Shown here piece after piece: positions 14,038 through 54,919 of a DNA stretch of 64,000 nucleotides (position 1 is its first letter; the number at the start of each line of letters is the position of its first letter). Source of the DNA: a virus; IMG/VR virus record IMGVR_UViG_3300045988_180880, positions 288,001 to 352,000 of that record, one strand, 5' to 3'. Under the pieces are notes generated by a model. It did not search any database, was not told where the DNA came from, and was given only the letters and a program-made list of their open reading frames with translations. Position numbers and translations under genes: made by a program.

Positions 14038-14056
14038 AATATTTATAAAACTCAGT

Positions 14057-39962: not shown

Positions 39963-39971
39963 ACAATAAAG

Positions 39972-39998
39972 GAGAGTAACTTTGATCGGTTACTTTTC
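39972..39998 (+). terminator. Hairpin GAGTAAC..GTTACTTTT (repeated element)
   Basis: Stem AGTAAC/GTTACT plus a T-run. The same element occurs at 41485-41510. Confidence 0.5.
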
Positions 39999-40018
39999 TA
40001 CTAAAACAATTATTTATT

Positions 40019-40534
40019 ATGAACCTACTAGATATATTACTCCCACTCCCTAGACGAAGAAGAGAAAAGGAAGAATTGAAAAAACTAGAGCCAGAAATAA
40101 AAAATCTTGAAGAAAAACTTGGATTAATTGGAAGAACTGGAACAGAAGTTTATTATGATCCACTCTATGAACGAAATAGAGGAAGAAAATATGATCTTAA
40201 AGGCCGAAAGGAATACCTAGAAGACCTCAGAAAACGATTAAACAATGGGTATAAGAGTTCGAATGTAATACGAGCTAGTGGATATTTTAGTCCAGGTAAT
40301 TCTAATGAAAAAGATACTTTTAACCCAATCATAAAAGAATTACCTAAACCAAGTAAGGTAGTGTATGTAGTATTAATAAGAAAAACTATTGATATCCCAA
40401 AAACGATAAAAATAGAGAACAGTACTGAATATAAAATAAAAAGTACAAACTCTGAATGTGATAATATAGAGGATTACTATATTATAAAAGAATTGGATGA
40501 AAACGCTAAAAAATTTATTAAATCTCTAATATGA
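40019..40534 (+). CDS. Hypothetical protein (MNLLDILLP family)
   Basis: ORF track. Paralogous to the truncated copy at 41528. Confidence 0.5.
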   Translation: MNLLDILLPLPRRRREKEELKKLEPEIKNLEEKLGLIGRTGTEVYYDPLYERNRGRKYDLKGRKEYLEDLRKRLNNGYKSSNVIRASGYFSPGNSNEKDTFNPIIKELPKPSKVVYVVLIRKTIDIPKTIKIENSTEYKIKSTNSECDNIEDYYIIKELDENAKKFIKSLI

Positions 40535-41454
40535 TCATATTAAGAAAATACCCAGAGGAACAGAAAGAATTTAGTATACTTTCAGAAATATCTCAATTGG
40601 GTTTAAGGAAAGGAACGAAAAATTATATCAGGAAACAAAAAAGAGATGTGGTGAACAAATTAATTCAAAATAAACGAGATTTTCTTGCAAAAACGAAGAA
40701 GACAGAAAGAAAATTGACTAATCTTCGAAAAGAAACAAAAGAGAATGAATTAATAGCCAATAATCTGAAAAAAGAAGCTAATAGAGTAAACACTGATATA
40801 ATACCCGATAATAAATTTTCTAAACTAGTACATCAGCCTAAAGGAGATAAATCCTATATTCTCGATAAAGAAAAGAGAAATCTACTTAAGCAAATGTCTA
40901 ATGATAAAAATTTGGATAAAGCTAGTAGAGAGTTAGCCAGATCAAGTTCGGCCAAAGATGCAATTATAAATCTTAACTCTGATGCAATAGGAAAAGACAC
41001 CCCGTTTGTTGCCCATGAACTAGGTCATGTTAAAAATAGTAAAAAATCTATTAATTCTGCAATTCAAAAACTAGCTGATAAATCTAATAATAGTAAAGGA
41101 ATATTAGCTGATATTGGGAAAAGAACTATTGGAATTCAAGAAGAAAATAATGCCTGGAAAAATGGAATAAAGGATTTAAAAAAGGCTGGTGCAACGAAAG
41201 AAGAGATTAAACATGCCAAAAGTCTAGAAAATGCTGCAGTAGATACATATAGAAAAGGAAATAGTTTAAGAAATAACTTAAATGAAAAGCTATTAAATAA
41301 ATTACATCCAAAAGAAATAGATAACTATAAAGTATTTCCTGGATCTCATAAAGAAGAAAAAGATTTAATGGAACTTTTTGGAGATAAAGGAAGAACTGAA
41401 AGACAGAAATATAATTTAAGAAGAAAAATAATAAATAAAAGGAAATCTAAATAA
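40531..41454 (+). CDS. Leader-variant (MIILRKYPEEQKEFS) HExxH zinc-metalloprotease-like protein
   Basis: FVAHELGHVKN, then downstream EENNAWKNGIKDLKKAGATKEE (candidate third ligand Glu). Family shared with 42379, 46777 and 52678. Confidence 0.55.
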   Translation: MIILRKYPEEQKEFSILSEISQLGLRKGTKNYIRKQKRDVVNKLIQNKRDFLAKTKKTERKLTNLRKETKENELIANNLKKEANRVNTDIIPDNKFSKLVHQPKGDKSYILDKEKRNLLKQMSNDKNLDKASRELARSSSAKDAIINLNSDAIGKDTPFVAHELGHVKNSKKSINSAIQKLADKSNNSKGILADIGKRTIGIQEENNAWKNGIKDLKKAGATKEEIKHAKSLENAAVDTYRKGNSLRNNLNEKLLNKLHPKEIDNYKVFPGSHKEEKDLMELFGDKGRTERQKYNLRRKIINKRKSK

Positions 41455-41484
41455 TTATATACTATTATAAAAAAAACAATAAAG

Positions 41485-41510
41485 AAGAGTAACTTTGATC
41501 GGTTACTCTT
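41485..41510 (+). terminator. Hairpin AAGAGTAAC..GTTACTCTT (repeated element)
   Basis: 9-bp perfect stem. Duplicate of the 39972 element. Confidence 0.5.
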
Positions 41511-41527
41511 CTACTAAAACAATTACT

Positions 41528-41701
41528 ATGAGCCTACTAAATATATTACTTCCTAGACAAAGGATGATAAATCAAGAAATAAAAAGTCTTGAAGAAAAAC
41601 TTGGATTAACCGAAAGAGATACAAAAACTCTTTTCTATGATCCACATTATATTAGAAATAAATCATTTCAAACAAGAAAAGATTATCTAAACTATAACTA
41701 G
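41528..41701 (+). CDS. Truncated paralog of 40019 (MSLLNILLP..)
   Basis: 57 aa. Shares the 5' flank, the N-terminus and the EEKLGL..YDP.Y motif with 40019. Confidence 0.4.
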   Translation: MSLLNILLPRQRMINQEIKSLEEKLGLTERDTKTLFYDPHYIRNKSFQTRKDYLNYN

Positions 41702-41764
41702 AAAAAAATGATAGGGCGCTAAAATGCTTCTCTAAAAGTAAGAAAAAACATTAGAAGGATAAAA

Positions 41765-41793
41765 AAGAAGATCAACTTTTCGTCAATCTTCTT
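41765..41793. terminator. Hairpin between convergent genes
   Basis: Stem AAGAAGAT/ATCTTCTT (8 bp), flanked by an A-run and a T-run. Confidence 0.45.
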
Positions 41794-41801
41794 TGTAGGG
41801 A

Positions 41802-42071
41802 CTATTTAAGTGATTCTTTATATTCTTTTATCTCTTTACCACATTGATAGATCAATTCAGAAATACCTTCTGCACTTTCTAATGTATCTGTATTATCTAA
41901 TACATTAGATACAACTTTACACCAATGTCTATCTTTTTCAGAAAGAGAATCTGGATTTTTCTTATATTTATACATCATTTCTGCACCTAAATTATACCCT
42001 GCACCTTTTACCAATTTAAAAGCTGCTATAATTGATATAGTAGCTAATCCAATTTTTAATAATGTTTTCAT
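41802..42071 (-). CDS. Small protein with N-terminal hydrophobic (signal/TM-like) segment
   Basis: MKTLLKIGLATISIIAAFKLV.. The conserved motif lies 21 nt upstream of its ATG. Confidence 0.55.
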   Translation of the reverse strand: MKTLLKIGLATISIIAAFKLVKGAGYNLGAEMMYKYKKNPDSLSEKDRHWCKVVSNVLDNTDTLESAEGISELIYQCGKEIKEYKESLK

Positions 42072-42092
42072 ATCTTTTATATATTTTATTTA

Positions 42093-42111
42093 TTACATAT
42101 ATAAGGCTTTT
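42093..42111 (-). promoter_or_regulatory. Conserved motif TTACATATATAAGGCTTTT
   Basis: One of 7 copies. Confidence 0.55.
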
Positions 42112-42127
42112 ACTCCTTCCAAAAATT

Positions 42128-42170
42128 AATATCGGGGGGGGGTAAAAGTATAAACAATTCCTCTTCGATA
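42128..42170 (+). promoter_or_regulatory. G9-tract element (degenerate copy)
   Basis: GGGGGGGGG at 42134-42142, 39 nt upstream of the leader-gene ATG at 42181. Confidence 0.4.
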
Positions 42171-42180
42171 CAAATATTAA

Positions 42181-42315
42181 ATGATTATAAAACGTAAACT
42201 ATTTTCTAAAGATTCAAAAGTTCTCGTCCCTTATTTTGAACCTGGCATTACTGAAACTGGTAGACGATACGTAACACTAATCACTAACGATGGAAGAAAG
42301 AAGCGGCAATATATA
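42181..42315 (+). CDS. Leader-tagged (MIIKRKLFS) 44-aa ORF, possibly a remnant
   Basis: Hand translation; below the ORF-track size cutoff. Confidence 0.35.
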
Positions 42316-42378
42316 GATCCGTATAGAAAGAGAACTAAAAAAGAATTAGAAAACTAACTTAACTTATTAATTAAAATT

Positions 42379-43177
42379 ATGATAATCAAAAGAAAACTGT
42401 TTAGTAAAAAAAGAGGAGAATAAAAACTTCAATGACACTAGTTCAAAAGCAAAAGGAACTGCTTTATATCTTGGAGGTGCGGTAGCGGGTCAAGGTATCG
42501 CTGCACCTATAATGATGAAACATATGCAAGACGAACCCTCAGAAGAATCTGCAAAAATAGCTGAAAAACTAAAAAGATTAGCTTCTAGACGAGGACATAA
42601 AGTAGATAATATTACATATACTGGAATGGGACCTGCATATCAAAATAATAAAATTTATACAAGTGGAACAAAAGCAGCTGATGTTCTTTCACATGAAATG
42701 GGACATGCTCACTATGATAAAAGAAAAGTAAAATCAGTAAGTGATGCTATTGGTAAAGTTGCTCATAAAGCTTATCTAAAAACTGGTGGAATGTTGAATC
42801 ATACAGTTCTAGCTCCTACAGCAGGAATAATAGCAGGTGTTAGATCAGGTAAAAAAGCAGCAGAAAAAGAAGCAGCCGGAGAAAAAGAATCAAAACTCTC
42901 CAGACATAGTGGATGGGCATCTGGTTTAGCTGTTCAATCTCCAGGGCTAGTATCAGAGGCTATGGCAAGTAAACATGGTCTAGATTTAATGAAAAAAGCT
43001 GGTGCCTCTAAGAAATTAATGAAAGCTAGTCGAAAAAACCTAGGTGTAGCTTTAGGAACTTATGCTGGAGTTGCTGTAACTAATGCAGGAATGTCAGAAT
43101 TAGCTAGAGGAATTGCATATAGAAAGAAAAAGAAAAAATTAGAGAAGGAAAAAGATAAAAAGAAAGATGATAAATAA
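42379..43177 (+). CDS. Leader-tagged (MIIKRKLFS) HExxH metalloprotease-like protein; frame broken at an A7 run (42406-42412)
   Basis: ATG at 42379 gives MIIKRKLFSKKRGE*. A +1 shift in the A7 run joins it to ORF-track 42512..43177 (..EENKNFNDTSSKAKGTALYLGG..VLSHEMGHAHYD..SEAMASKHGLDLMKKAGASKK). Confidence 0.5.
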
Positions 43178-43191
43178 CTAATATCATCTTT
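43163..43191. terminator. Hairpin overlapping the stop of 42379..43177
   Basis: Stem AAAGATGAT/ATCATCTTT (9 bp), between convergent ORFs. Confidence 0.45.
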
Positions 43192-43205
43192 CTTATAAAT
43201 CGTAA

Positions 43206-43280
43206 CTAAAATATCTTTCCAAAATGACGAAAGTATTTAAAAAAGTTACGATAACCAATAAATAATCCTAATCCTTTCAT
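43206..43280 (-). CDS. 24-aa basic/hydrophobic peptide (MKGLGLFIGYRNFFKYFRHFGKIF)
   Basis: Its ATG sits 20 nt from a conserved motif copy, the same spacing as the other minus-strand genes. It is the last 24 codons of track ORF 43206..43460. Confidence 0.35.
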   Translation of the reverse strand: MKGLGLFIGYRNFFKYFRHFGKIF

Positions 43281-43300
43281 AATCTTATATATTTTATATA

Positions 43301-43319
43301 TCACATATATAAGGCTTTT
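43301..43319 (-). promoter_or_regulatory. Conserved motif TCACATATATAAGGCTTTT
   Basis: One of 7 copies. Confidence 0.5.
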
Positions 43320-43344
43320 AAGGAATATAGAGTGTAAAACTATA

Positions 43345-43406
43345 AATCCTGGGAAAGTTTGGGATATAACTGCCCAGGAACTAATTAAATAAAAATAAAG
43401 AGCTAT
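43345..43406 (+). repeat. 62-nt repeat with hairpin CCTGGG..CCCAGG (copy 1)
   Basis: Nearly identical to 52621-52679. Here it is followed only by a 14-codon remnant ORF (MIFQKKYKNLERNI*). Confidence 0.7.
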
Positions 43407-43555
43407 ATGATATTCCAAAAGAAGTACAAAAATCTGGAAAGAAACATTTAAGTAATGCATTTAGAATCCATGAAATTAATGAAGTTAAGAAAATAATCTC
43501 AGATAATACTAATAGACTTCTTGGAAAAATAGAAATAAATAAAGAGATTTGGAAA

Positions 43556-43846
43556 CTAATCCAAATCTCTAATCTCAATAGCATAATAACCTTCAGGAAT
43601 ATTCCATACCCCTGGATCTAATGCATTTGTGGGTATTTCTGTATTTTCATTGATAGGATACAAGTCTACTCTTTTATGATCAAGCCAATCTGAACAAGGA
43701 GTTTTTGATGTATTATGATAATCCTTTAAAAAGATTAATTCATTTCTTTTTACTCTCATACTTTTATTAGATTTATTAAGATTTTCTACTATTTTTTCAA
43801 ATCTTAGCATAGGATTTTCTATAGAGCTAATATCTTTATCATCCAT
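43556..43846 (-). CDS. Small protein with C-terminal YPINENTE(I/V)P.NAL..WNIPEGYY.IEI domain
   Basis: Start taken at Met27 of track ORF 43556..43924. Its C-terminal domain is paralogous to 43860..44063. Confidence 0.5.
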   Translation of the reverse strand: MDDKDISSIENPMLRFEKIVENLNKSNKSMRVKRNELIFLKDYHNTSKTPCSDWLDHKRVDLYPINENTEIPTNALDPGVWNIPEGYYAIEIRDLD

Positions 43847-43859
43847 AATTTTATAATAT

Positions 43860-44063
43860 TTAAATGTTAATTTCAATAGTGTAGTAACCTTCTGGAATAT
43901 TCCATATCTCAGAAGATAATGCATTTTTAGGTACTTCTGTATTTTCGTTAATAGGATATAACATTACTATTTTATAATTACATTCTAAATGAGATCTTAT
44001 TATATCTTTCTCTTCATCAGTAAGTTTTTTCTCAATTACCGCTTCTTTGACTATTCTTTTCAT
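43860..44063 (-). CDS. Small protein, paralogous domain to 43556..43846
   Basis: ORF track. The conserved motif lies 24 nt upstream of its ATG. Confidence 0.5.
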   Translation of the reverse strand: MKRIVKEAVIEKKLTDEEKDIIRSHLECNYKIVMLYPINENTEVPKNALSSEIWNIPEGYYTIEINI

Positions 44064-44087
44064 AATTCTACGTATTTAAAATTTATA

Positions 44088-44106
44088 TTACATATACGAG
44101 GCTTTC
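44088..44106 (-). promoter_or_regulatory. Conserved motif variant TTACATATACGAGGCTTTC
   Basis: One of 7 copies. Confidence 0.45.
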
Positions 44107-44596
44107 AAATTGATAAAAAGGAGGTTTTATATAGGTTTGTCCCTTATTTATGAGGACAAAGGAGTTTCCCTTATCCTACACCTCTAACCGCTACCGCTAG
44201 AGGTGTCTTAGAAAAGAAACATTGAATAAGATATATAGGAAATTTTAATATAATATCATTTTAATTAAGTTGACACCCCTTTGGCCTCTGGGGGCCAGGG
44301 GTGGTGTTTCTAGATTAAAAGCTCATAGAAATCCTAAACATAAATATTCCATGTCTCCGACATAATCTTATGTTCTTTATCTATATGAGCAAGTGTCGCA
44401 AATTCTTTAGATAATATCTTTTATAGTGGAGAGTCAAAAATAATAAATTAAATCGACAAAATGCGTATAATATCCTTTCAATCCCTTATGATTGAAAAGG
44501 GAATCCTCCTATGTCTTCAATTTAAAGAGACATAGAAATTCTTTTAACTGGATTCTCTATTAGATTATAATAAATTTAATAAAAAATTATACGTAT

Positions 44597-46669
44597 ATGT
44601 CAATACTAAAATTACCTAATATCGTAGTACCAAGAGGTATTAGATATATTTCAGAAATGGATAGTTTATTTAGATTTTATAAACTACCTGTAAAGTGTAT
44701 AATTAATAAGCAACTTCCTGGATGTGGTTTTACAGAATACTGTATTAATGGACCAGAAAATGTTATTCTGTGTAGTCCTAGAAAAATGCTCTTAAAGAAT
44801 AAGAAGGATCAACATGGTAGAGATGTTTATTTGGTTGTAAATGAACTTGAGAAGGAAATAGAGGTTGATAAAGATCTCTCCAAGATAGATAAAATTAGAT
44901 CTCAAGTATTTATGGATACTCTTAAAGAAGTAGTTCATGGAAAGGATACAGTTTATAATAAATTAATGAATGAAATTAAAGATTATCTAAATGAGAGGAA
45001 GTACTTAGGGGATAAGCCCGCTAAGATCTTAGTTACATATGATTCATATAGAATAGTAAAAGATATTCTAAAAAGTCTTGGAATATTTCAGAGTTTCTAT
45101 ACAGTAATAGATGAATTTCAAACTATCCTACATGATTCTAAATTTAAATCAGATACTGAATTAGAATTCTTAGATATTCTTAAGCAATCTCATAGTGCAT
45201 TATTTGTATCAGCTACTCCTATGTTAGAGGAATATCTTAATATGTTAGATGAGTTTGATGGTTTACCTTATATTAATATGGATTGGGGTAAGGAGGATTC
45301 AACACGAATTATTAAACCAAATCTTAAGGTTTTATCTATGAAATCTACTGGATCTAAAGCAGAAGAGATCATAAAAACATATAAAGAGGGTAACTTTGAA
45401 AAATTTATCAAAATGGTTAATGGATATCCTAGGGAAATAATATCAGATGAAGCAGTGCTTTATGTAAACAGTGTGAATCATATTATATCTATCATCAAGA
45501 AATGTGATTTACAACCTGAAGAAGTAAATATCCTCTGTTCTAATACTCCTGAGAATCTAAAAAGAATACAAAAGAAATTAGGAAAGAAGTTTGTAATAGG
45601 GGAAGTTCCATTGAAAGGAGTAAAATCTAAAATGTTTACATTTTGTACAAGAACGGTTTACCTAGGCGCGGATTTCTATAGTTTATGTGCTAGATCTTTT
45701 ATCTTTAGTGATAGTAATATAGATAGTCTAGCCGTAGATATCTCAGAAGACTTGCCTCAGATATTAGGACGTCAGAGATTGTTTGATAATCCTTGGAAAA
45801 ATAATGCAATATTTTATTATAGACCTACATGTGACTATAGAAAGGTTAGTCAAGAGGAATTTGATAGAGAGATTGAGAGAAAGAAAAAAGCTACTAATGA
45901 TTTACTACTGTCATATAGTTCAACTCCTGATGAGGCAAAATTAACGTTGGCTGAGAGATATCAAAAAATGGCAAAGTCATTTAATTATAAAGATGACTAT
46001 GTAGCAGTAAATGAACACTCCAGGTCTACTCTAATTCCTGTTATTAATAACCTAGTTCTGGTAAATGAAATTAGAGCCTTCAGGATACAACAATATGACT
46101 ATAAGGATAGATTTACAGTATTTAGTTCAGTACATAATACACTAGATACAAATGATCTAATAAATCGAGAGGTTTCTGAATTTTTAAGTATGTATCAAGA
46201 ATTAAAAACATACTATGATAAAATAAAATTACTATGTGAATATAACTTATCTGAGCAGGGGGTTAGAATAATATTAGATCAGTTAGGAGGAGATGAGATA
46301 GCATCTCACTATATAGCATTGGGTCCTGATAGATTAAGGAAACTTTATTATAATAAAACTAACATTAAGAAGGAACTAGGTATAGTAACCTTCAGTAGGG
46401 AACTCTTAGTTAATACAGTTCTCTCCAAGTTTTCTATTGGAGATAGAATAGGTCAAGCAAGGATAAAAGAAATTCTTAAAAGTCTATATAATTCTATTGG
46501 ATATTCTGCTATTCCAAAGGCTACTGATTTGGAAGAATTCTTTAATATAAAAAGAGCAAAAGTTAGTGAAGTTCTTTTAGATGGTACAAAAAAAAGAATA
46601 GATGCATTAGAGATAATAGGAGTTAAGCCAGAGTATCAAGGAATATATAATAACCTGAAAAAACAATAA
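44597..46669 (+). CDS. Superfamily-2 (DEAD/DEAH-like) helicase
   Basis: Motif I-like LPGCGFTE, motif II VIDEFQ, motif III FVSATP, motif VI QILGRQR. Confidence 0.55.
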   Translation: MSILKLPNIVVPRGIRYISEMDSLFRFYKLPVKCIINKQLPGCGFTEYCINGPENVILCSPRKMLLKNKKDQHGRDVYLVVNELEKEIEVDKDLSKIDKIRSQVFMDTLKEVVHGKDTVYNKLMNEIKDYLNERKYLGDKPAKILVTYDSYRIVKDILKSLGIFQSFYTVIDEFQTILHDSKFKSDTELEFLDILKQSHSALFVSATPMLEEYLNMLDEFDGLPYINMDWGKEDSTRIIKPNLKVLSMKSTGSKAEEIIKTYKEGNFEKFIKMVNGYPREIISDEAVLYVNSVNHIISIIKKCDLQPEEVNILCSNTPENLKRIQKKLGKKFVIGEVPLKGVKSKMFTFCTRTVYLGADFYSLCARSFIFSDSNIDSLAVDISEDLPQILGRQRLFDNPWKNNAIFYYRPTCDYRKVSQEEFDREIERKKKATNDLLLSYSSTPDEAKLTLAERYQKMAKSFNYKDDYVAVNEHSRSTLIPVINNLVLVNEIRAFRIQQYDYKDRFTVFSSVHNTLDTNDLINREVSEFLSMYQELKTYYDKIKLLCEYNLSEQGVRIILDQLGGDEIASHYIALGPDRLRKLYYNKTNIKKELGIVTFSRELLVNTVLSKFSIGDRIGQARIKEILKSLYNSIGYSAIPKATDLEEFFNIKRAKVSEVLLDGTKKRIDALEIIGVKPEYQGIYNNLKKQ

Positions 46670-46776
46670 AACAATATTTTATGAGGTAAGTGTTCGATCT
46701 TACCTGAGACATAATAATTCTCATTCGCCAGTAAAGGTGAGTGGGAATTTTATTTTGAATAAAATTAGTACAAGAT

Positions 46777-47646
46777 ATGATAATAAAACGTAAACTAATT
46801 TTTGATAGTCCTGAACAAAGAGAGTTTGGGATTCCTTGGAAAAAGTATGCGAAATATGGAATGAGGTCTGTTAAAGACCACGGGTTAAGAAAAGGAATAA
46901 GAAAACTTCGATTTAAGATTTCTGATGATATTGATAAATCAATTAAAGCAAATGAAAAGGCTCATAAGGCTCTTGATGAATATACTAATAATACTGAATT
47001 TCCCAAACGATCAGAAGTAATGGAAGCTTTAGGTCAAGAAGCAAAGAAAAGAGGAATAGTTGTAATAAAAGGTAAAAAAGAATATAAACAGATATTGAAA
47101 GGTGGAGAAAAAATAAAACGCTCTTCTTATGATAGAAGTGAACCTTGGGCAGTTCCTAAAGAATATATAAAAAAGAAAGATATAATTAAGTATACTAAAT
47201 CTAATTTTCCAGAGGATAGAGAACTTGGAAAAGCATTATCTAAAGGAAAAGCTGTAATAAATCAAAAAGGAAGTCAGGCAGTACTTGCTCATGATATTGG
47301 ACATATTATGAATCGAAGTAAGACAAAAACAGGGATTGTATCTAAAGTAAATGATGTAACAAAATCGATTTATCAAGATAGTAGAAATAAAAAGGGATTA
47401 GGAAATTATTTACTAACTTCTGCAACAGGAAAGATTTTATTAAAAGAAGAAAAGAATGCTACTAAAAATGCAATGAGTCTTTTAAAATCAGCTAATGCAA
47501 CTCCAAATGAAATGATTGCAGCCAGAAAAGAATTAGGAGCAGATTTTGGAACATATATGCATGGTTATAAAGCAAGTAAGGGAAGAATATTAAAGGGAGT
47601 AGTAAAACCGAATAGAATAAAGAAGAAAAATAAAAAGAGACGTTAG
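46777..47646 (+). CDS. Leader-tagged (MIIKRKLIF..QREFG) HExxH-family protein with HDxxH variant
   Basis: VLAHDIGHIMN and EEKNATKNAMSLLKSANATPNE are homologous to the 40531/52678 family. The catalytic Glu is replaced by Asp. Confidence 0.5.
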   Translation: MIIKRKLIFDSPEQREFGIPWKKYAKYGMRSVKDHGLRKGIRKLRFKISDDIDKSIKANEKAHKALDEYTNNTEFPKRSEVMEALGQEAKKRGIVVIKGKKEYKQILKGGEKIKRSSYDRSEPWAVPKEYIKKKDIIKYTKSNFPEDRELGKALSKGKAVINQKGSQAVLAHDIGHIMNRSKTKTGIVSKVNDVTKSIYQDSRNKKGLGNYLLTSATGKILLKEEKNATKNAMSLLKSANATPNEMIAARKELGADFGTYMHGYKASKGRILKGVVKPNRIKKKNKKRR

Positions 47647-47966
47647 GCCTCTTTTTCTTGAATTTTAGAAATTAAACTATTAATATATTTTTCAGCTAAT
47701 TCTTTTGTCTTAAATTTATTATTGAAAGATCCAATAATATAATATTTCTCTGGATCTTCTAGATTTATATTATATAATAGTTTAAAAGTTTCTAAATCTT
47801 CTTTCTTAATATTTAATATTTTCATATCTTTAGGAACATCGTATTCTTCTTTAGATACTTGAATTAATGTAATAAACGAAATCCCTTGTTCAAAAACTTT
47901 AGCTGTAGTGAACATTTTAGATATCTGTTTATTAGGTTTTACAATTTTAATAATATCTTTTTTCAT
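47643..47966 (-). CDS. Small protein convergent with, and overlapping by 4 nt, the HDxxH gene
   Basis: ORF track, 107 aa. The conserved motif lies 18 nt upstream of its ATG. Confidence 0.55.
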   Translation of the reverse strand: MKKDIIKIVKPNKQISKMFTTAKVFEQGISFITLIQVSKEEYDVPKDMKILNIKKEDLETFKLLYNINLEDPEKYYIIGSFNNKFKTKELAEKYINSLISKIQEKEA

Positions 47967-47984
47967 ATTCTTATATATTTATCA

Positions 47985-48003
47985 TTACATATATAAGGCT
48001 TTT
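47985..48003 (-). promoter_or_regulatory. Conserved motif TTACATATATAAGGCTTTT
   Basis: One of 7 copies. Confidence 0.55.
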
Positions 48004-48057
48004 AGTTTATTATATTCCGTTCTTTATTTATGATCGGAAAAGTAAAAAATCATATTC

Positions 48058-48100
48058 TCTAAAGGGGGGGGGTATGAAGTTTAATATTCCCCTTAAATAG
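48058..48100 (+). promoter_or_regulatory. G9-tract element with 8-codon uORF (MKFNIPLK*)
   Basis: G9 at 48064-48072, then T-ATGAAGTTTAATATTCCCCTTAAATAG. The main ATG follows 12 nt later. Confidence 0.5.
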
Positions 48101-48112
48101 TATATAAATAGT

Positions 48113-49057
48113 ATGATAATAAAAAGAAAATTATTCTCTAAGAAATTAACAGCCGAAGAGAGAAAACAGAGAGCTGCAGATCAGATTGATAAAACTCGTA
48201 AAGGAGTATCTACTGCGCATGGAATTTTAGCTGGTGGTACTGTAGCTGGGGTAGGTCTTTTAGGTTCTGATATTGCCAGAAATGAAGCTATGTATAAAGT
48301 AACTAAACAAACTAATAAACATGTAGATAAAATTAGCGAAAATTATGGTAATAAACTAGATAAGATAAGAAATACTGGAGATAAAGTTCGAGAATTGGCT
48401 AAGAAGAGATTGAAGAAAACTGGAAATCCTATAAAAGATCTTGCTAATGAACTTGATATTGATAGAAAGGTTGATTATGTCGAAAATGTCTATAAAACAG
48501 GAGCTGGAGAAGAATATAATGCTAAAATCGAAACTCTTAAAAAAGCTTCTAATAGATTAAAGGATAGAATTTCAAAGAAAGCTTCAAAGAGAAATAAGAA
48601 GATCTTGGTAGGAGCAGCTTTATTAGGAACAGCGGCGGGATTAGCTTCAAACCATTCAATGAAGAAACGTGCAGAAAAACTTAGAGAGAATAAATTTTCT
48701 AAGGCTGATAATGATTTAGATGAAGAAACATATCTTGGGATGTCAGAAGAATTTGATGATTCTAAATTCTCTCGAAAGTCAGATAAATGGCTTAAAGAAA
48801 GAGCTAGATATAATGAAGGTTTGACTGATAGAGAGAAAAAGAATATAAAGAAGACTGCTGCTAAAGCGATGATAGGTTTAGGTGTGACAGGAGCTTCAAT
48901 TGGATTAGCTAAGAAATTATCTTTAAAAAGAGGTTTAATAGGAGCTGGAATCGGTGCTGCTACAGGTGCCGGAATTGCTGCAGCTGCACATCTTCATCAT
49001 AAATCAGAAGCAAGAAAGGCTCGTAAAGAATTAGAGCGTAGAGAAAAAGAAGATTAA
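48113..49057 (+). CDS. Leader-tagged (MIIKRKLFS) coiled-coil protein with Gly/Ala-rich hydrophobic segments
   Basis: ORF track, 314 aa; contains ILAGGTVAGVGLLG and GLIGAGIGAATGAGIAAAA. Confidence 0.55.
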   Translation: MIIKRKLFSKKLTAEERKQRAADQIDKTRKGVSTAHGILAGGTVAGVGLLGSDIARNEAMYKVTKQTNKHVDKISENYGNKLDKIRNTGDKVRELAKKRLKKTGNPIKDLANELDIDRKVDYVENVYKTGAGEEYNAKIETLKKASNRLKDRISKKASKRNKKILVGAALLGTAAGLASNHSMKKRAEKLRENKFSKADNDLDEETYLGMSEEFDDSKFSRKSDKWLKERARYNEGLTDREKKNIKKTAAKAMIGLGVTGASIGLAKKLSLKRGLIGAGIGAATGAGIAAAAHLHHKSEARKARKELERREKED

Positions 49058-49085
49058 TTAATAAAAAAATGAGAGTTTAACGATT

Positions 49086-49847
49086 ATGAATATTTTAACA
49101 TCACAATTACCATCAGGAGGATATGGATATAAATTCCCAAGTGTTAAGGTTAGTCCTATGACATTCTTAGAGATAACGAGATATCTTGAGAATCTTCCTT
49201 CTGATGATCCACTAGAAAAATACTTATATGATATCAACTTACTTATCCAGGAAGATGAAACTATCCTAGATTGTTATTTAATGGATGTAGATTTCTTGAT
49301 ATTTTATAAAAAGCTTTGTACGGTTTCTGGAGAATTATCTTATGAAATTGAGGTAACATGTCCAGAATGTGGAAAGAAAATGAAAAAAACTATATCCTTC
49401 GAGAAAGATATACACTTTAAACAGATCGATCAAAAGATTATGAATGGTGCTTTTATTGAACTCGGTGGACATAGATACGAGACTATAGTTCCGACAGTTA
49501 GAGAATTTATGAAGGTTTTTCAAACTTACCTTAGATATCGAACTGTAACTGATCTTAAGATGATTAAAACTATAGCACTGATTAAAGATTTTGATTATCA
49601 GGGAACACAGATTGAAAAAGATGTCCTTGGGGCTACTCACTCTGATGTTACACTTCTCTTAGCTTTACGTGACTTATATTATGATCGTCTTGAGCCAGTT
49701 CAATTGTTTTGTTCAGAATGTAATAAAGGTAAAAAACCGAAGGAAAGGAGGAGTGTGGCAGTAAGTGTAGAATCTCTTACTGTCGACTTCTTTCGAGACA
49801 TCTGTAACAATTCCCCAATTGATGGATCTAAAATTTTATTTAAATAA
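49086..49847 (+). CDS. Zn-ribbon protein, possible baseplate-hub/tail-assembly factor
   Basis: N-terminal QLPSGGYGYKFP, and CPECGK...CSECNK. The functional guess relies on a remembered T4 gp26/gp51-type motif only. Confidence 0.3.
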   Translation: MNILTSQLPSGGYGYKFPSVKVSPMTFLEITRYLENLPSDDPLEKYLYDINLLIQEDETILDCYLMDVDFLIFYKKLCTVSGELSYEIEVTCPECGKKMKKTISFEKDIHFKQIDQKIMNGAFIELGGHRYETIVPTVREFMKVFQTYLRYRTVTDLKMIKTIALIKDFDYQGTQIEKDVLGATHSDVTLLLALRDLYYDRLEPVQLFCSECNKGKKPKERRSVAVSVESLTVDFFRDICNNSPIDGSKILFK

Positions 49848-50103
49848 ATTTCTTAAGGCAGATGGAATAGAGAATTATACATTGAGTTCTCTTAAAGCTC
49901 TTAGGGAATGTTATGAGAATTTTCTTGATACTACTGAAGGAACTGATCCAGACTTCCCATTACTTAATTTTGGTGGTAAGAAGGGACAGAGGCTTAAGGG
50001 TATATCAGCAGCACAGCGCCAAGCCTACTATGAATCTGAAGCTGAGAGAAAAGAAATGATGGGTGAGGGAGGAATAATAAATGTAAACATTTTAGACTTA
50101 TGA
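49822..50103 (+). CDS. Hypothetical protein overlapping the 3' end of 49086..49847 in the +1 frame
   Basis: ORF track (ATG at 49822). Its stop overlaps the next ATG (ATGA). Confidence 0.4.
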   Translation: MDLKFYLNKFLKADGIENYTLSSLKALRECYENFLDTTEGTDPDFPLLNFGGKKGQRLKGISAAQRQAYYESEAERKEMMGEGGIINVNILDL

Positions 50104-50887
50104 TTATAAAACGTAAATTATTTAGTCAGAAAAAAAAGAATCTGATGACAAACTTAAGAGGGCCGCATCAATAGCCGGAGGAGCGGTAGTTACTAAAGAA
50201 GGATTGAATATACTAGATAATGTACATCAATCTGGAGAAGTATCTGGTAGGGTTAGATTATATCATGGAACTACTAAGAAAAATAAGAAGAAAATACTAG
50301 AAGAAGGTTTGAAAGGTGAAAAAGCTCTTACTAGTGATGCTATTACTAATTAAAGAATAGGTGATGTTGGTAAAAAGTTTGGGAAGAAGATAGTATATAC
50401 TGGAAAAAAGAGAGCGCCAGCGATTGACATGATAGTATCTCACGCAATGAATGCTGAAACACCTTCTATGGTTAGGATGTCAATTCCCTACAAAGAGTAT
50501 CAGAACATGAGGTCTAGGAGAGTATATGAGAATCCTGAATTTACTATCGCTCACAATGCAAAAACTAAAAAAGAGTTTGCTGAGGATATGAAGAATAATA
50601 TATTTCATCCAATGACTAAGAGAGAAGCTAATAAATATTATGATAAGTTTTCTGGTGCTAAAGGAACTTCTGGAACAAGAATTTTTGAAGGTGATATTGA
50701 ATCTAAATATATAAAAGGAGGAAAAGGTTATCAAAAAAATTCTATCAAAGAGGTTGGAAAATATATTAAAAAGAATCCTAAACGTTTTGCTAAGGGTCTT
50801 GGAAAAGCTTCTCTTGGTGCTGGATTAATTGCAGGAGGAGCGGCATTAGCTATCAAAGGTGGAAAAAAGAAAGATAATACTGAATAA
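50100..50887 (+). pseudogene. Leader-tagged ART-fold paralog, disrupted (A_AAA_AAG shift site plus in-frame TAA at 50351)
   Basis: MIIKRKLFSQKKK, then the -1 frame reads ESDDKLK..GRVRLYHGTTKKNKKKILEEGLKG..AITN*, then in the same frame RIGDVGKKFGKKIVYTG.. which continues into ORF-track 50429..50887. Confidence 0.55.
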
Positions 50888-50917
50888 ATTAATCTATAAT
50901 AAAAACTTCTATCTTCC

Positions 50918-50965
50918 TGTAAACGGGGGGGGGTATGAAGTTTAATAATTCCCCTATATAATATT
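50918..50965 (+). promoter_or_regulatory. G9-tract element with 8-codon uORF (MKFNNSPI*)
   Basis: G9 at 50925-50933, then T-ATGAAGTTTAATAATTCCCCTATATAA. The main ATG follows 6 nt later. Confidence 0.5.
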
Positions 50966-50967
50966 TT

Positions 50968-51897
50968 ATGATTATTAAGAGAAAATTATTTTCTAAAAAA
51001 GAAGATAATAAGAAATTAAAAGAAGGAGTAGGATTATCTTCTATTATAGGAGGTGGATATTTAATTTCTAAATCAAATAATAAAGGAGATTTAACAGGAA
51101 GGCATAAATTCTATCATTCAACTGAAAAGAAGAATGTTAAATCTATTTTAGAAAGTGGTCTTAAAGGTTCTAAAGCATTAGAGGATGGAAACTTTACAAA
51201 TTCATTTCTTCATGGTGCCGGAAAAGATGATGGAAGGGAGTTAGTATATTTAGCAAAAAATAAAAAATCAGCTAGGAATGTTTCGGATGCTAGGATTGAA
51301 GCTGGTAGAGGAAAATCAAAGACTCTAAAAGTAGAAATACCACATGAAGACTATAAAAAAATGAAAATAGCTAATGGAAATCCAGAACTAGAAGGAGCCA
51401 AAACATATAAAGAATTTCTAAATAATAGAAGTTATAGAGAGGATAATAAATATAATAGATCTCTTTGGAAAGATTTAGGAGGAGATAGGAATTCTAACAC
51501 TAGAATGATTGAAGGAAATATAGATTCTAAACATATCGTTGGTGGGAAAGGATATAAAAAATTAAGTACTAAAGAGTTAAGAGGTTATATCAAGAAAAAT
51601 CCCAAAAAATTTTTAAGAGGGGCTGGAAAATTATCTTTAGGTGTCTCCGGAGTTTATATAGGAGGAAAATTACTTCGGAATAATGCAGAAAATTCTAAAT
51701 CTAACAGTATCGATAATTCAGAAAAAATTTTAGTAAGTGCTGGAGCAATTGGATCTGGAATTAAAACTGCTAGGACTGAATTAAAGAAAGTTAAACAAAA
51801 TGATGTTATTGGTAGATCTAAAATTGACCAATTTTCTTCTGGATCTTTCAGAAAAAAAGCAAAAATCGTAAAAGATCTTGTTAAAAAGAAGGAGTAA
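50968..51897 (+). CDS. Leader-tagged (MIIKRKLFS) ADP-ribosyltransferase-fold candidate (H-Y-E, Tpt1/DarT/PARP-like); possible -1 extension to 52109
   Basis: RHKFYHSTEKKNVKSILESGLKG (H-x-[ST]...I..GL), RELVYLAKN (Tyr) and TRMIEGNI (Glu). T_AAA_AAG at 51882-51888 opens a 74-codon -1 frame that has no ATG of its own near its start. Confidence 0.4.
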   Translation: MIIKRKLFSKKEDNKKLKEGVGLSSIIGGGYLISKSNNKGDLTGRHKFYHSTEKKNVKSILESGLKGSKALEDGNFTNSFLHGAGKDDGRELVYLAKNKKSARNVSDARIEAGRGKSKTLKVEIPHEDYKKMKIANGNPELEGAKTYKEFLNNRSYREDNKYNRSLWKDLGGDRNSNTRMIEGNIDSKHIVGGKGYKKLSTKELRGYIKKNPKKFLRGAGKLSLGVSGVYIGGKLLRNNAENSKSNSIDNSEKILVSAGAIGSGIKTARTELKKVKQNDVIGRSKIDQFSSGSFRKKAKIVKDLVKKKE

Positions 51898-52111
51898 GTA
51901 ACTTTGATGATATTTATAAGAGAGCGGGAGAAGCTGTAGAAAATGATATTAATATTGAAAGAAAAGCACAAGAGAAAGGAATGAATATATTAAAAAAAGC
52001 AAAGAAATTAGGAAAACAGAAATCTATAGCAAAAGGAGCTTTAGTAACTTCTTCCTTATTAGGTGCTTATGCTGGATATAGAAAATATAGAAAAGATAGG
52101 GAGGAATAATT

Positions 52112-52594
52112 ATGAGAGTATTAAGACAAAAAGTATTTTCTTTACTAACTGAACGAATTAGAGAAGAATACTTAATAAAACCTGGAGATTTCGATAAATT
52201 TCCAAAAATCGTTCAAAATTATTACTTACAGGGAATTAATAAGGATTTTTATGATTTAATTAATCTCCAAGGATGTCATGGATTTAATCCATTTCCAACT
52301 CCAATATTAGATAAAAAACCTAATAAAGATGGATATATTCCTTTATTTGCAGAAAATCAAGATTATGCTGACTTAGATAATCCTACAGTTTACTATAAAG
52401 ATGGAGTATTATTCAAGAAGACTGGGATATTTTTCAAAAAGATAGTTCCTATGAGTGACTTGAAATTTAAGAGTTTTCTTCTCAATAGTATGATTAATGA
52501 AGATGATTTAGGTCAGGAGTGGAAACAACATCCTAATGGAAATAGGATAATAGCTCTTGAAGAAAAGATGGAGAGGAAAATTAATAGATTATAG
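52112..52594 (+). CDS. Leader-variant (MRVLRQKVFS) hypothetical protein
   Basis: ORF track, 160 aa. Confidence 0.5.
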   Translation: MRVLRQKVFSLLTERIREEYLIKPGDFDKFPKIVQNYYLQGINKDFYDLINLQGCHGFNPFPTPILDKKPNKDGYIPLFAENQDYADLDNPTVYYKDGVLFKKTGIFFKKIVPMSDLKFKSFLLNSMINEDDLGQEWKQHPNGNRIIALEEKMERKINRL

Positions 52595-52620
52595 AAAATT
52601 AATCCTCCTTAAAAACATAC

Positions 52621-52679
52621 AATCCTGGGAAAGTTTGGGATATAACTGCCCAGGAACTAAATTAAAAATAAAGAGCTAT
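52621..52679 (+). repeat. Repeat with hairpin CCTGGG..CCCAGG (copy 2), 5' flank of 52678 gene
   Basis: Nearly identical to 43345-43406. Confidence 0.7.
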
Positions 52680-53616
52680 GATTATACTATTGAAAAATAA
52701 ATCATTAACAGGGAGAGAAAAATCTATAGTAGAACAGAAAGAATTTAGCTTGCCAAGTAGTATAATGAAATCTATAAGAAATTTTATTGCTCCTATTAAT
52801 AAAAGAGATGGATCTAATAAAATAAAGAATCCATTAGTATTGTACGCTAGAGATCAGAAAGCTAGAAGAATTAGAGCAAATAGAAAACTAGGAATTGATT
52901 TAAAAACAAATGTTCCCAAGAATCCTAAGTTAAATCAGAGTCTAACAAAAGAGATAACAAAGGATGGAGAAAATTGGGTATTGGATAATAATGGCTGGTA
53001 TAAATTTCAAAATAACGTTGCGAGAGAATCAGCTGCTCCAGTAAATAGAGTTACATTAGGGATAAATAATCTTAAATATACAAAAATTTCTCCAAAAGAC
53101 TGTATAGATCTTTCAGAATCAAAAGCACTACTAGCTGCTAAAACAAAGAAAAATATAATAAACCTTGAAGGAAGTTTGTTAGATTCTACAACTCCTATGT
53201 CTCATGAATATGGACATATATTAAATTCTAAAAATCCAAGAACTAGAAAGGTAGGGATGAGAATTAGAAGATTACAGAATCAAGAAAACAAAACGACCTC
53301 TAATAGATTCTTTGGAAAAGCAAAATCTACATGGAATATTGCTAGATTAAATAACTCTATTGTTTCTGAAGAGAAGAATGCTTGGAAGAACGGAATAAAT
53401 GCATTGAAAAGAAATGGTGCTACTTCAGAAGATCTAAAGTATACTAATAAATATAAAAATGCAGCTTTAGATACATATAAGAGTAGTAGAAATTTAAAAA
53501 TTGTATCGAAAGTATATGACATGTTTAAATCAAAAAATTCGGTTAATCCAATAGAATCATTAATGAAAGATAGAAAATATAAATGGAATGCAGTAGATCT
53601 AGGGTCTAATTTGTAA
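52678..53616 (+). CDS. Leader-variant (MIILLKNK..EQKEFS) HExxH zinc-metalloprotease-like protein
   Basis: PMSHEYGHILN and EEKNAWKNGINALKRNGATSED. Closest paralog is 40531..41454. Confidence 0.55.
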   Translation: MIILLKNKSLTGREKSIVEQKEFSLPSSIMKSIRNFIAPINKRDGSNKIKNPLVLYARDQKARRIRANRKLGIDLKTNVPKNPKLNQSLTKEITKDGENWVLDNNGWYKFQNNVARESAAPVNRVTLGINNLKYTKISPKDCIDLSESKALLAAKTKKNIINLEGSLLDSTTPMSHEYGHILNSKNPRTRKVGMRIRRLQNQENKTTSNRFFGKAKSTWNIARLNNSIVSEEKNAWKNGINALKRNGATSEDLKYTNKYKNAALDTYKSSRNLKIVSKVYDMFKSKNSVNPIESLMKDRKYKWNAVDLGSNL

Positions 53617-53624
53617 AAAAAAAT

Positions 53625-53658
53625 AAAAAGTAGAAATCTTTGTTAATCTCTACTTTTT
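53625..53658. terminator. Hairpin between convergent genes
   Basis: Stem AAAAAGTAGA/TCTACTTTTT (10 bp). It overlaps the stop of the minus-strand gene. Confidence 0.5.
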
Positions 53659-54019
53659 ACAAATCATACTTACTTAAATAATCCTTTATTATTTTTAGAT
53701 CCCCATTATCAAATTCAATTATATTATTAGGTATATCGAATTGCCATTCTCCTGGCGCAGTATAAACGTAATTACACTCTTTACCATCATCTTCTATAAT
53801 TTGAATATCTGAGGTATTACCTTTATACTCTACCATTGGTCTAAGTCTAATTATTCTTTTATCACTACTAATAGGATTTTTAGTAAATATGAATAGTTCT
53901 ACTGATTTAGGTTTATCTTCTTCATCCCTAAATGTTAATTCAGCGTCTTCGGTAAATTCAAATTGACATGAAGACACATCTAATTCACTTTTTTTAATAA
54001 ATCTTATTCCTATTTTCAT
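53657..54019 (-). CDS. Small protein convergent with the HExxH gene
   Basis: ORF track, 120 aa. The conserved motif lies 17 nt upstream of its ATG. Confidence 0.55.
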   Translation of the reverse strand: MKIGIRFIKKSELDVSSCQFEFTEDAELTFRDEEDKPKSVELFIFTKNPISSDKRIIRLRPMVEYKGNTSDIQIIEDDGKECNYVYTAPGEWQFDIPNNIIEFDNGDLKIIKDYLSKYDL

Positions 54020-54036
54020 ATTTCTTTGGTTTTATA

Positions 54037-54054
54037 TTACATATATAAGGCTTT
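54037..54054 (-). promoter_or_regulatory. Conserved motif TTACATATATAAGGCTTT
   Basis: One of 7 copies. Confidence 0.55.
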
Positions 54055-54103: not shown

Positions 54104-54919
54104 ATGTTTGGATTTATCAGAAGATATGTAAAGAGAAAGAAGTTTAGGTCTAAGGTAGAAGTAGAACTACATGATATATTAAGAAACTTTTTTGATTTTA
54201 ACGGAAATATATATATTTATTTAGATGAGTATAGTACGGAGAGATTATTGGATTGTGTAGAAGGTCTAAAAAGTCTTCATAACAAGTATTTAGGGAAAGA
54301 TATCCAATTTTTTCATAATTGCGAAGATATTCAATATATCTTATATTCTAATATTGATCAATTAAGTAATATTATAGAAACCGATTTGGAGTCTCGAGAG
54401 TATTTATATAATTTTCTGAAAGATTATATATCTAAAAGAGTTTCTCTTAATGAATTAGATCTAAGTAGGGAATATAATAAAGAATTTTTTAATATTTTCT
54501 CAACTATCGTAAATATAATAGATGATGGCGGTATAGGTATTAATTATAAAAATTTTATTAATTCTTATCTATATTCATCTAGTATATTATTTAATGAAAT
54601 GAATGATATATTGAATGAGTATATAAAATTATATCCACTAAGTAATAAGGATATAGTTCGGGAAAAAGTGACTGTACATGAACCAAAAATGATAAAAGTT
54701 TCGGGTGATTATATACCAACAAGTGAATTCGTAGATTATTCAGTATTATATGTAAAAACTCCAAAAGATAGATATGAATTATTATCTCCTTATTCTTTAG
54801 AGGATGAAAAATATTATATCAATGAGTTTCGCAAAGAAGATGATACTAAGAAAGATTTTAACTTGGATAATATACTTTCTATAGAACACTTTATAAGAAA
54901 CTATATAAAACAAAAATAA
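54104..54919 (+). CDS. Hypothetical protein
   Basis: ORF track, 271 aa; Asn/Ile/Tyr-rich. Confidence 0.5.
   Translation: MFGFIRRYVKRKKFRSKVEVELHDILRNFFDFNGNIYIYLDEYSTERLLDCVEGLKSLHNKYLGKDIQFFHNCEDIQYILYSNIDQLSNIIETDLESREYLYNFLKDYISKRVSLNELDLSREYNKEFFNIFSTIVNIIDDGGIGINYKNFINSYLYSSSILFNEMNDILNEYIKLYPLSNKDIVREKVTVHEPKMIKVSGDYIPTSEFVDYSVLYVKTPKDRYELLSPYSLEDEKYYINEFRKEDDTKKDFNLDNILSIEHFIRNYIKQK

Follow-up and report, generated by a model that had tools for sequence, protein, structure and literature searches.

A window of 64,000 nucleotides (nt) of the IMG/VR virus record IMGVR_UViG_3300045988_180880 (positions 288,001 to 352,000 of that record) contains, at positions 39,963 to 54,054 of the window, an island of accessory genes in which four genes for basic HExxH proteins of ~300 amino acids (aa) are followed by small genes on the opposite strand. 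The window is most likely part of an uncultured ~390-kb jumbo phage from human-associated metagenomes, and the island is a hypervariable accessory locus within the apparent late tail module. As the best explanation of this locus, to which we give about an even chance, we propose that it encodes N-terminally tagged proteins that would be delivered by the virion, and that its peptidase genes would travel as modules of two genes, the second encoding a small dedicated partner whose expression is timed separately.

In this proposal, the tag would direct basic proteins into the virion, by analogy with the internal proteins of phage T4 and their capsid-targeting sequence, and the phage would then deliver these proteins into the cell that it infects next. 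The majority of the peptidase genes constitute a two-gene module with an opposite-strand small gene that has its own copy of a promoter-like motif, AAAGCCTTATATATGTAAT, and ends at a shared bidirectional hairpin; because the small gene has its own promoter and ends at the hairpin, it would be expressed at another time than the enzyme. The small protein would be a dedicated binding partner, either an inhibitor that silences the peptidase or a packaging chaperone, rather than an unrelated neighbour. Modules are gained, lost and swapped among related genomes by recombination at short conserved sequences, namely the tag with its upstream element at one end and the minus-strand promoter at the other. 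The close relatives that we compared are IMG/VR, ENA and Logan contigs of up to ~400 kb with 90-99% identity; we reconstructed the island completely in seven relatives and in part in a further 14.

Paralogous HExxH proteins are predicted zincin-like peptidases

The four HExxH genes of the window are the following.

40531-41454, plus strand: enzyme E2, with HELGH at residues 162-166, E205, Y240 and the tag MIILRKYPEEQKEFS
42379-43177, plus strand: enzyme E7, with HEMGH, 264 aa in relatives; frameshifted here, with a long open reading frame (ORF) at 42512-43177
46777-47646, plus strand: enzyme E0, with HDIGH and the tag MIIKRKLIFDSPEQREFG
52678-53616, plus strand: enzyme E9, with HEYGH and the tag MIILLKNKSLTGREKSIVEQKEFS

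A preliminary description of the island, made from the sequence alone, had taken these genes for paralogues, and BLASTP among the four bears this out (E 1e-24 to 9e-6). The proteins have an isoelectric point (pI) of ~10, and the group as a whole holds at least 10 enzyme families (E0-E9) with a mutual identity of 25-33%. In an alignment of nine members (the four window enzymes and five from relatives), H162, G165, H166, E205, A208 and Y240 are invariant, as is the pattern HE.GH with the sole exception of HDIGH in 46777. E205, the predicted third zinc ligand, is invariant across 44 sequences and is located on helix 191-218 of the AlphaFold2 (AF2) model of 40531. This model (predicted local distance difference test score, pLDDT, 72.7; means per 10-residue block of 83-94 for residues 81-150 and 77-89 for residues 151-170) comprises a long N-terminal helix, three strands (88-91, 107-110 and 144-147) that precede the HExxH helix (157-171), and the Glu-bearing helix. 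Its topology agrees with the core described for the MPTase (zincin) domain, a three-stranded sheet flanked by helices (PMC5512222). Based on motif and topology we call the enzymes zincin-like peptidases, and they are predicted to be metallopeptidases of the gluzincin type.

Profile and structure searches gave little to add to this prediction. Among the 44 homologues, 15 matched PF04298 (best E 5.5e-6), matches described as sub-threshold, five matched Peptidase_M78, and one member matched PF18818 weakly (E 0.048). Two results weigh against the prediction: none of the window enzymes reaches a Pfam threshold or has a PHROGs match, and a Foldseek search of the enzyme model against the PDB and BFVD returned nothing significant, the best matches being a 'Peptidase M48' (E 0.69) and an uncharacterised phage protein (E 0.095). 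A profile search of the PDB with the enzyme gave weak M3 and myroilysin matches only.

Several copies of these genes are interrupted. E2 is frameshifted in three of eight relatives, and in the window the E7 frameshift (42379-42420) consists of one extra A in a run of seven where the relatives have six; either a mistake in the assembly or on/off variation by slippage may account for this change.

Convergent small genes share a promoter-like motif

The small genes that lie next to the enzymes, with one partner-type gene that is co-directional, are listed below; dN/dS is the ratio of nonsynonymous to synonymous substitution rates.

41802-42071, minus strand: 89-aa gene with an N-terminal hydrophobic helix; partner of E5 in relatives, orphan here
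43206-43280, minus strand: 24-aa ORF MKGLGLFIGYRNFFKYFRHFGKIF, convergent with E7
43556-44063, minus strand: two small paralogues in tandem (43860-44063 and 43556-43924), both with the C-terminal sequence ...W.IPEGYY.IE
47643-47966, minus strand: 107-aa partner of E0, never found apart from E0; dN/dS 0.19
53657-54019, minus strand: 120-aa acidic (pI 4.6) partner of E9; dN/dS 0.30
40019-40534, plus strand: 171-aa co-directional partner-type gene with the C-terminal sequence NIEDYYIIKE; overlaps the start of 40531 by 4 nt

The preliminary description had stated that all four HExxH genes are followed within 350 nt by minus-strand units, and the coordinates and spacing proved correct. The distance from 40531-41454 to 41802-42071 is 347 nt, with the truncated 41495-41701 in between; the end of E7 at 43177 is 28 nt from the 24-aa ORF, beyond which lie 43556-43924 and 43860-44063; 46777-47646 and 47643-47966 share 4 nt; and a gap of 40 nt separates 52678-53616 from 53657-54019. 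Its count of six out of seven minus-strand genes of the window in the island also holds when promoter-bearing units are counted, the seventh being 8596-8805. The minus-strand ORFs that are free of plus-strand overlap comprise 8596-8805, 26471-26653 and those of the island; 26471-26653 is doubtful (TTG start, no motif). Within the window, the next gene is a minus-strand unit for three of the four HExxH genes versus ~2 of 52 other plus-strand genes (Fisher p = 0.0014).

The regulatory elements associated with these units are the following.

42092-42108, minus strand: promoter-like motif AGCCTTATATATGTAAT, 20 nt 5' of the ATG of 41802-42071
43300-43316, minus strand: promoter-like motif with one mismatch, for the 24-aa ORF 43206-43280
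44087-44103, minus strand: promoter-like motif with two mismatches, 5' of 43860-44063
47984-48000, minus strand: promoter-like motif, exact; homology to relatives stops at 48004
54036-54052, minus strand: promoter-like motif, exact, 5' of 53657-54019
41764-41794: hairpin terminator with A/T-run flanks, downstream of 41802-42071
43543-43570: hairpin terminator with A/T-run flanks, at the end of 43556-43924
47632-47656: hairpin with A/T-run flanks, located across the stop codons of 46777 and 47643, which overlap
~53620-53656: hairpin with A/T-run flanks between 52678 and 53657, read directly from the sequence
52637-52661, plus strand: conserved upstream element (hairpin and GGGATATAACTGCCCAGGAACTAAA), common to other cassettes

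All promoter-bearing minus-strand units have AAAGCCTTATATATGTAAT 15-23 nt 5' of their ATGs. In the window this motif is found at 42092, 43300, 44087, 47984, 54036 and 8823, always on the minus strand; with up to three mismatches there are nine matches, seven of them on the minus strand, versus 0.76 expected. Across 25 related stretches, 60 of 60 copies are on the minus strand and ahead of small ORFs. Each minus-strand unit had been described as having its own conserved upstream motif; the motif is present, but it is one shared motif rather than specific to each unit. A scan for sigma-70 promoters performed no better than on shuffled sequences (96 matches versus 89.6 expected). Hairpins, which had been described as separating the convergent partners, are found in three of the four pairs, but none is seen between 43177 and 43206.

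Enzyme and partner families pair across relatives

A convergent unit at most 45 nt away, or overlapping by 4 nt, is present for 12 of 17 enzyme families (nine of this clade including L032, and three of the more distant L031). For nine families (E0, E1, E4-E7, E9, E14 and E15) this unit carries AAAGCCTTATATATGTAAT, and L031 (E10-E12) contains no copy of the motif within two mismatches. None of the tagged non-peptidase genes 48113, 50968, n33 and n56 has a convergent unit. The families map one to one (E0-47643, E1-n36, E4-n26, E5-41802, E6-43556, E7-24-aa peptide and E9-53657), and two pairs are retained in diverged genomes: the E6/43556-family pair in L031, where enzyme identity is 44%, and the E9/53657 pair in L088, where the E9 orthologue has 84% and the partner 62% identity. 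L031 contains two enzyme/partner pairs, the partners of which are paralogous to each other, and the 43556 family is the convergent partner of E6/E10 in relatives and L031 (dN/dS ~0.7). Homologues of 47643 (P0140 and L087 4655-4978) adjoin an HExxH gene in another phage. In L087, one member of the 47643 family is convergent and ~0.9 kb from a frameshifted HExxH gene, and a paralogous member lies 8 nt downstream of that gene on the same strand.

Four partners are under purifying selection (dN/dS 0.19-0.37), and the 24-aa ORF is conserved in five genomes, in two variants. The AF2 model of 47643 has an alpha/beta fold (pLDDT 82.6) without a match in the PDB; when its family was searched in depth with HMMER, a single distant relative (P0140) emerged, and word-based searches, made for 47643 and 53657, yielded close relatives only. 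Of the six longer partner families, four have an acidic pI of ~4.5 and two, 41802 (pI 8.5) and 47643 (pI 9.1), are basic, as are the enzymes.

Other features of the neighbourhoods weigh against a dedicated pairing. First, AAAGCCTTATATATGTAAT is used genome-wide, often in co-directional arrays without a peptidase nearby, and because of this genome-wide use the partners belong to a general expression class. Second, neighbours change: 53657 comes after E9 in the window, but in c179979 it comes after n28, which is not an enzyme gene, and n36 is found behind enzyme E1 in some genomes and behind n28 in others. Next to n28, both partners have a different enzyme family on their other side; in c179979, enzyme E8 is inserted between the promoter of 53657 and 54104. 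Third, orphan partners are common; enzymes E2, E3 and E8 have no convergent partner; the partners of the related E7, E14 and E15 are unrelated peptides of 24-34 aa; and in distant phages HExxH genes stand in plain co-directional arrays without convergent partners, and in one case the gene is two genes 5' of a tape measure. Finally, because related genomes are not independent samples, the one-to-one map may largely reflect common descent. For a co-variation of enzyme and partner across relatives, which the preliminary description had put forward for comparison, the one-to-one map and the two pairs retained in diverged genomes speak in favour, and the n28 neighbours, the orphans and the shared ancestry speak against.

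Several of these observations would be expected if the minus-strand units were small accessory genes of no special kind, under a distinct and probably early class of promoter, that accumulated in the same hyperplastic region as the late peptidase genes and were joined to them by cassette recombination, with no interaction between the products. In line with such independence, AAAGCCTTATATATGTAAT lies mostly away from peptidase genes, the breakpoints between relatives fall on conserved regulatory sequences as in the promoter-early stem-loop (PeSL) shuffling of T4-like phages (PMC4122927), the partner families are unrelated to each other, 53657 and n36 come after n28 in some genomes, and a similar minus-strand unit, 8596-8805, follows a non-peptidase gene outside the island. 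Independence leaves unexplained why 12 of 17 peptidase families and no tagged non-peptidase have a convergent unit, why stop codons overlap by 4 nt, why a pair is retained at 44% enzyme identity, and why the 47643 family is found beside an HExxH gene in another phage and in another orientation. We consider it rather unlikely. Functional pairing of enzyme and partner is plausible, and we judge it about as probable as its opposite.

That the partner proteins are mutually unrelated, as had been noted, is mostly the case; 43556 and 43860 are paralogues, and several partners have a short E-x-Y-Y motif. By-eye alignments of 47643 with n36 (z 1.8) and of 53657 with n26 (z 1.3) were non-significant and jackhmmer was negative, and we rejected these similarities as evidence of a superfamily uniting the partners. 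The motif, in its post hoc form E-x-Y-Y-[IALV], has seven matches in 233 ORFs versus 2.1 expected: 40019, 43556 and 47643 (the latter two on the minus strand), 54104, L031 4821-5018, L031 9472-10026 and L087 4324-4488, of which 54104 was left out of the derivation of the motif. Six of the seven carriers adjoin an HExxH gene or remnant on either strand, and L087 4324-4488 lies two genes downstream of one. The motif may mark a common binding element of the partner proteins. The co-directional 40019 occurs together with 40531 in eight of eight relatives, and its family is also found 5' of E5 and E11.

A peptide tag marks a genome-wide class of basic proteins

The N-terminal tag has a short form, MII[KL]R[KQ]..F[ST], and a long form ending in EQ[RK]E[FY][GS]; the longer tag reads MIIxRKLxTKxFTGRDLVERLYSEGWELEQREYG and contains the constant core [RQ][KR][LE][FY][SG]. 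Twelve ORFs of the window carry it, and among the tagged proteins those with the zincin-like core make up the largest subgroup. Three of these (1672, 22491 and 28920) lie outside the island, and the tag therefore marks a genome-wide class of proteins rather than a feature of the island. The codons of the tag vary synonymously while the peptide is conserved, documenting that the tag is selected at the peptide level; the same variation ruled out that the tag is an artefact of recombination at the DNA level. The tag is kept in distant homologues, for example as MIILRQ..FS and MIIKRKYFT, and the tagged proteins have a pI of ~10. A literature search on the tag sequence found nothing, and library scans identified no prohead protease in the window.

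Outside the island, MIIKRKL[FY] opens the basic ORFs 1672, 22491 and 28920, the second of which has long Gly/Ala-rich segments. Further tagged genes within the island are the following.

42181-42357, plus strand: tag-bearing ORF of 58 aa, starting with MIIKRKLFS
48113-49057, plus strand: tagged basic protein with Gly/Ala-rich hydrophobic segments, without a minus-strand partner
50968-51897, plus strand: tagged basic protein with a weak, non-significant resemblance to Tpt1/KptA (E 0.46)

The resemblance of 50968 lies in the segment FYHST..NVKSILESGLKG, for which the sole PDB alignments were to RNA 2'-phosphotransferase (Tpt1/KptA, of the ADP-ribosyltransferase superfamily; E 0.46, non-significant). 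A G-run element, GGGGGGGTAWRARK, is located at 42136, 48066 and 50927, ~45 nt 5' of the tagged genes 42181, 48113 and 50968. These are its only three matches in the window (0.22 expected), and at 48066 and 50927 it is followed by TTTAATA..TTCCCCT.

Modules are exchanged at conserved junctions

Among eight relatives with ~90% identity, the length of the island from the 40531 homologue to the tape measure ranges from 9.5 to 17 kb, and the gene sets differ. Constant in all relatives are 40019 with 40531, 44597, 49086 with 49819, and the tape measure; all else is variable. The homology blocks end at the tag ATGs of 46777 and 50100, just beyond the minus-strand promoters (43324, 48004 and 54064), and at the plus-strand hairpin and upstream element at 52610-52672, an element that is also found at 43361. 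Conserved promoter and stem-loop sequences, namely the minus-strand promoter motif, the hairpins and the plus-strand upstream element, thus flank variable ORFs, and the pattern of breakpoints resembles shuffling of the T4 PeSL type.

The duplication and decay that had been noted in the island were verified at three places, to which the frameshift in E7 can be added.

41495-41701, plus strand: truncated copy of a 165-aa paralogue of 40019; intact in relatives, where E5 follows; E5 is deleted here
43361-43385 and 43405-43543, plus strand: remnant of E6, consisting of the upstream element and the last ~139 nt; the body, intact in relatives, is deleted here
50100-50887, plus strand: duplicate of 50968, frameshifted and in decay; tag present at 50100

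Genome setting and borders of the island

The window has ~30% GC, and its coding sequence is nearly all on the plus strand. Scans against Pfam- and PHROGs-type libraries recognised almost no protein of the window, the exceptions being a tape-measure-like protein and two zinc-finger homing-endonuclease-like genes, alongside six tRNAs; within the island, neither the proteins nor the partners had a significant Pfam or PHROGs match, and megablast and tblastn searches against GenBank phages gave no match. The island is bordered and interspersed by the following genes.

54923-58447, plus strand: tape-measure-like protein containing a tail lysozyme domain; forms the right-hand border
44597-46669, plus strand: core gene, 690 aa, weak DEAD-box match, in all relatives
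49086-49847 and 49819-50103, plus strand: two overlapping core genes, in all relatives
54104-54919, plus strand: variable gene, 271 aa, directly 5' of the tape measure, containing DEKYYINE

The preliminary description had placed the island between tube and tape-measure genes. The tape-measure identity is backed by the library scans of 54923-58447, but the ORF at 37463 that had been called a tube gene has no significant match in Pfam or the PDB, and a sheath identity was likewise unconfirmed in library and PDB searches. The product of 49086 weakly matches two baseplate hub profiles, that of the T4 gp26 family at E 2e-4 and a PHROG at E 1.8e-3; 49086 and 49819 may be the real tail-assembly genes of the region. 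In c179979, the homologue of 54104 overlaps the 3' end of enzyme E8 by 4 nt.

A zinc-finger (DUF4379) homing-endonuclease-like gene at 39036-39962 is missing in six of eight relatives, in which 39004 is joined straight to 39961, and is a recent insertion at the island's left edge; a gene that resembles it is located at 26877-28175. At 37555-38953, four to five tandem elements of ~150-200 nt each give sub-threshold matches to the group I intron model of Rfam (27-36 bits, where the gathering score is 50; E 4e-7 to 2e-4 when 1.7 kb was searched). These elements have the common blocks TGCTGGAA, AATCAGCA, TTCTCAACGACTA and GATGATATAGTCT, with hairpins that show compensatory changes in between. One copy, at ~37603-37764, interrupts the putative tail-tube ORF precisely between ...VPKI and VYFPGTD..., and this 160-nt insert is missing from relatives. 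In several relatives, for example at c35283_119 13811-14902, a 363-aa gene with an N-terminal T5orf172 (GIY-YIG-like) domain, for which the window has no counterpart, sits after the 44597 homologue. Its DNA is similar to the region for the C-terminus of 44597, of which it appears to be a duplicate, and it looks like a further mobile gene of the island.

Alternative roles of the small genes

If the locus were a strict toxin/immunity system, the peptidases would be toxic and the convergent small proteins would be cognate neutralisers that protect the producing cell or the assembling virion, or else protect the infected cell against the effectors of a superinfecting relative. Such a function would fit that each enzyme family has its own partner family, that orphan partners outlast lost or decayed enzymes, that enzymes are often frameshifted while partners are intact, that the L088 partner diverges faster than the enzyme (62% versus 84% identity), that partner and enzyme have opposite charges, and that a separate promoter permits expression ahead of the enzyme. 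Nevertheless, the convergent orientation and the genome-wide promoter are unlike the layout of immunity genes, one and the same partner can adjoin a non-enzyme or enzymes of different families, conservation is lacking for the tiny peptide partners, the enzymes of distant phages stand without such a partner, and the variable C-terminal parts are one fold rather than differing toxin folds. We regard this explanation as unlikely.

A more specific possibility concerns competition between related phages: the delivered metallopeptidases would act against host defences or against the proteins of a related phage that is resident or co-infecting, and the small proteins would be family-specific neutralisers. 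We consider it quite improbable. Were it true, the small proteins would amount to a superinfection-immunity repertoire expressed from a fast, separate promoter class, in which orphan shields outlast the matching weapon, and the locus would be a polymorphic effector/immunity system delivered by phage particles and shuffled by its own regulatory sequences.

It is very improbable that the units act primarily as a transcriptional device, in which convergent transcription from AAAGCCTTATATATGTAAT would, by antisense RNA or interference, silence the enzyme until late or insulate late operons and the ORFs would be secondary, because the bidirectional hairpins in three of four pairs should halt read-through, four partner ORFs are under purifying selection and one of them folds confidently, the 24-aa peptide is conserved and the co-directional L087 family member cannot act in this way, even though promoter and convergence are conserved with a non-conserved ORF of 24-34 aa, as in L032, and every copy of the motif in the late region is on the minus strand.

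Under the preferred reading, in which tagged proteins would travel in the virion and the small proteins would bind the peptidases, a peptidase coupled to a small gene under another promoter would be a new enzyme/partner organisation in phages. The pairs 46777/47643, 52678/53657, 42379/24-aa peptide and E6 family/43556 family are concrete candidates for inhibition or chaperoning, and AAAGCCTTATATATGTAAT together with the conserved junctions provides a handle on the transcription programme and on genome diversification. If the tagged proteins are virion cargo, they would represent a large, fast-shuffled arsenal of about ten peptidase families and other tagged proteins, and the tag could be used to predict cargo clade-wide or to load foreign proteins. 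The T4 capsid-targeting sequence has already been used to load foreign proteins.

Comparison with known systems

The closest parallels are found in T4 and its relatives. T4 has diverse internal proteins (IPs) that carry a capsid-targeting sequence (CTS; PMC3012670), and T4-like phages have PeSL cassettes and modular shuffling in hyperplastic regions (PMC2839356; PMC4122927). Like the IP loci (PMC3012670; PMC4122927), the island has a short conserved N-terminal tag of ~10 aa on otherwise diverse basic proteins that are clustered in a region differing between close relatives; the role proposed for the IPs, to be packaged in the virion and delivered with the DNA against the host, may by analogy apply here. 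The differences are that the tag sequence is unrelated and its cleavage and targeting role putative, that the locus lies upstream of the tape measure in an apparent tail module, that many members are ~300-aa paralogous zincin-like enzymes rather than small inhibitors, and that T4 IP genes have no convergent partner genes. As in PeSL cassettes, short conserved promoter and stem-loop sequences flank variable ORFs, and the indel breakpoints of close relatives fall there. The sequences differ, and there are two kinds of junction here, one formed by the minus-strand promoter and the other by the tag together with the plus-strand hairpin and upstream element, so that what is exchanged is a pair of convergent genes.

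The preliminary description had likened the island to polymorphic toxin/immunity loci. The likeness holds for an N-terminal part in common, which serves delivery in those loci, for an enzymatic part that diversifies, for a small gene next to it that is specific to the family, and for the presence of orphan partners and of enzyme copies in decay. It does not hold for the enzymatic C-terminal domains, which are homologous and of one fold here (other tagged proteins, 48113 and 50968, do differ), or for the partner, which is convergent and has its own genome-wide promoter, whereas the immunity gene is downstream and co-transcribed. Delivery here would, in addition, be via the virion. The analogy is useful for the evolution of the locus but, on these two defining features, fails as a family assignment.

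The zincin-like MPTase of phage and plasmid polyvalent proteins (PMC5512222) has the same HExxH motif with a downstream Glu and the same core of three strands and helices, and its carriers are thought to enter the cell with the invading DNA and to process cargo or attack host proteins. That domain is fused into one giant protein, whereas the enzymes here stand alone after a short tag and a long helix and are encoded by ~10 paralogous genes per genome. Class I chaperones of type III secretion are small partners encoded beside delivered effectors, each specific for one. The partners here are similar in size (~100-140 aa), in charge (four of the six longer families are acidic) and in their position beside basic proteins; the machinery of delivery is another one, and searches by sequence and fold gave no match for a partner. 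We found no description in the literature of this tag, enzyme family or module layout. The locus brings together features already known from IP/CTS loci, from PeSL shuffling and from zincin effectors, and is not a new category.

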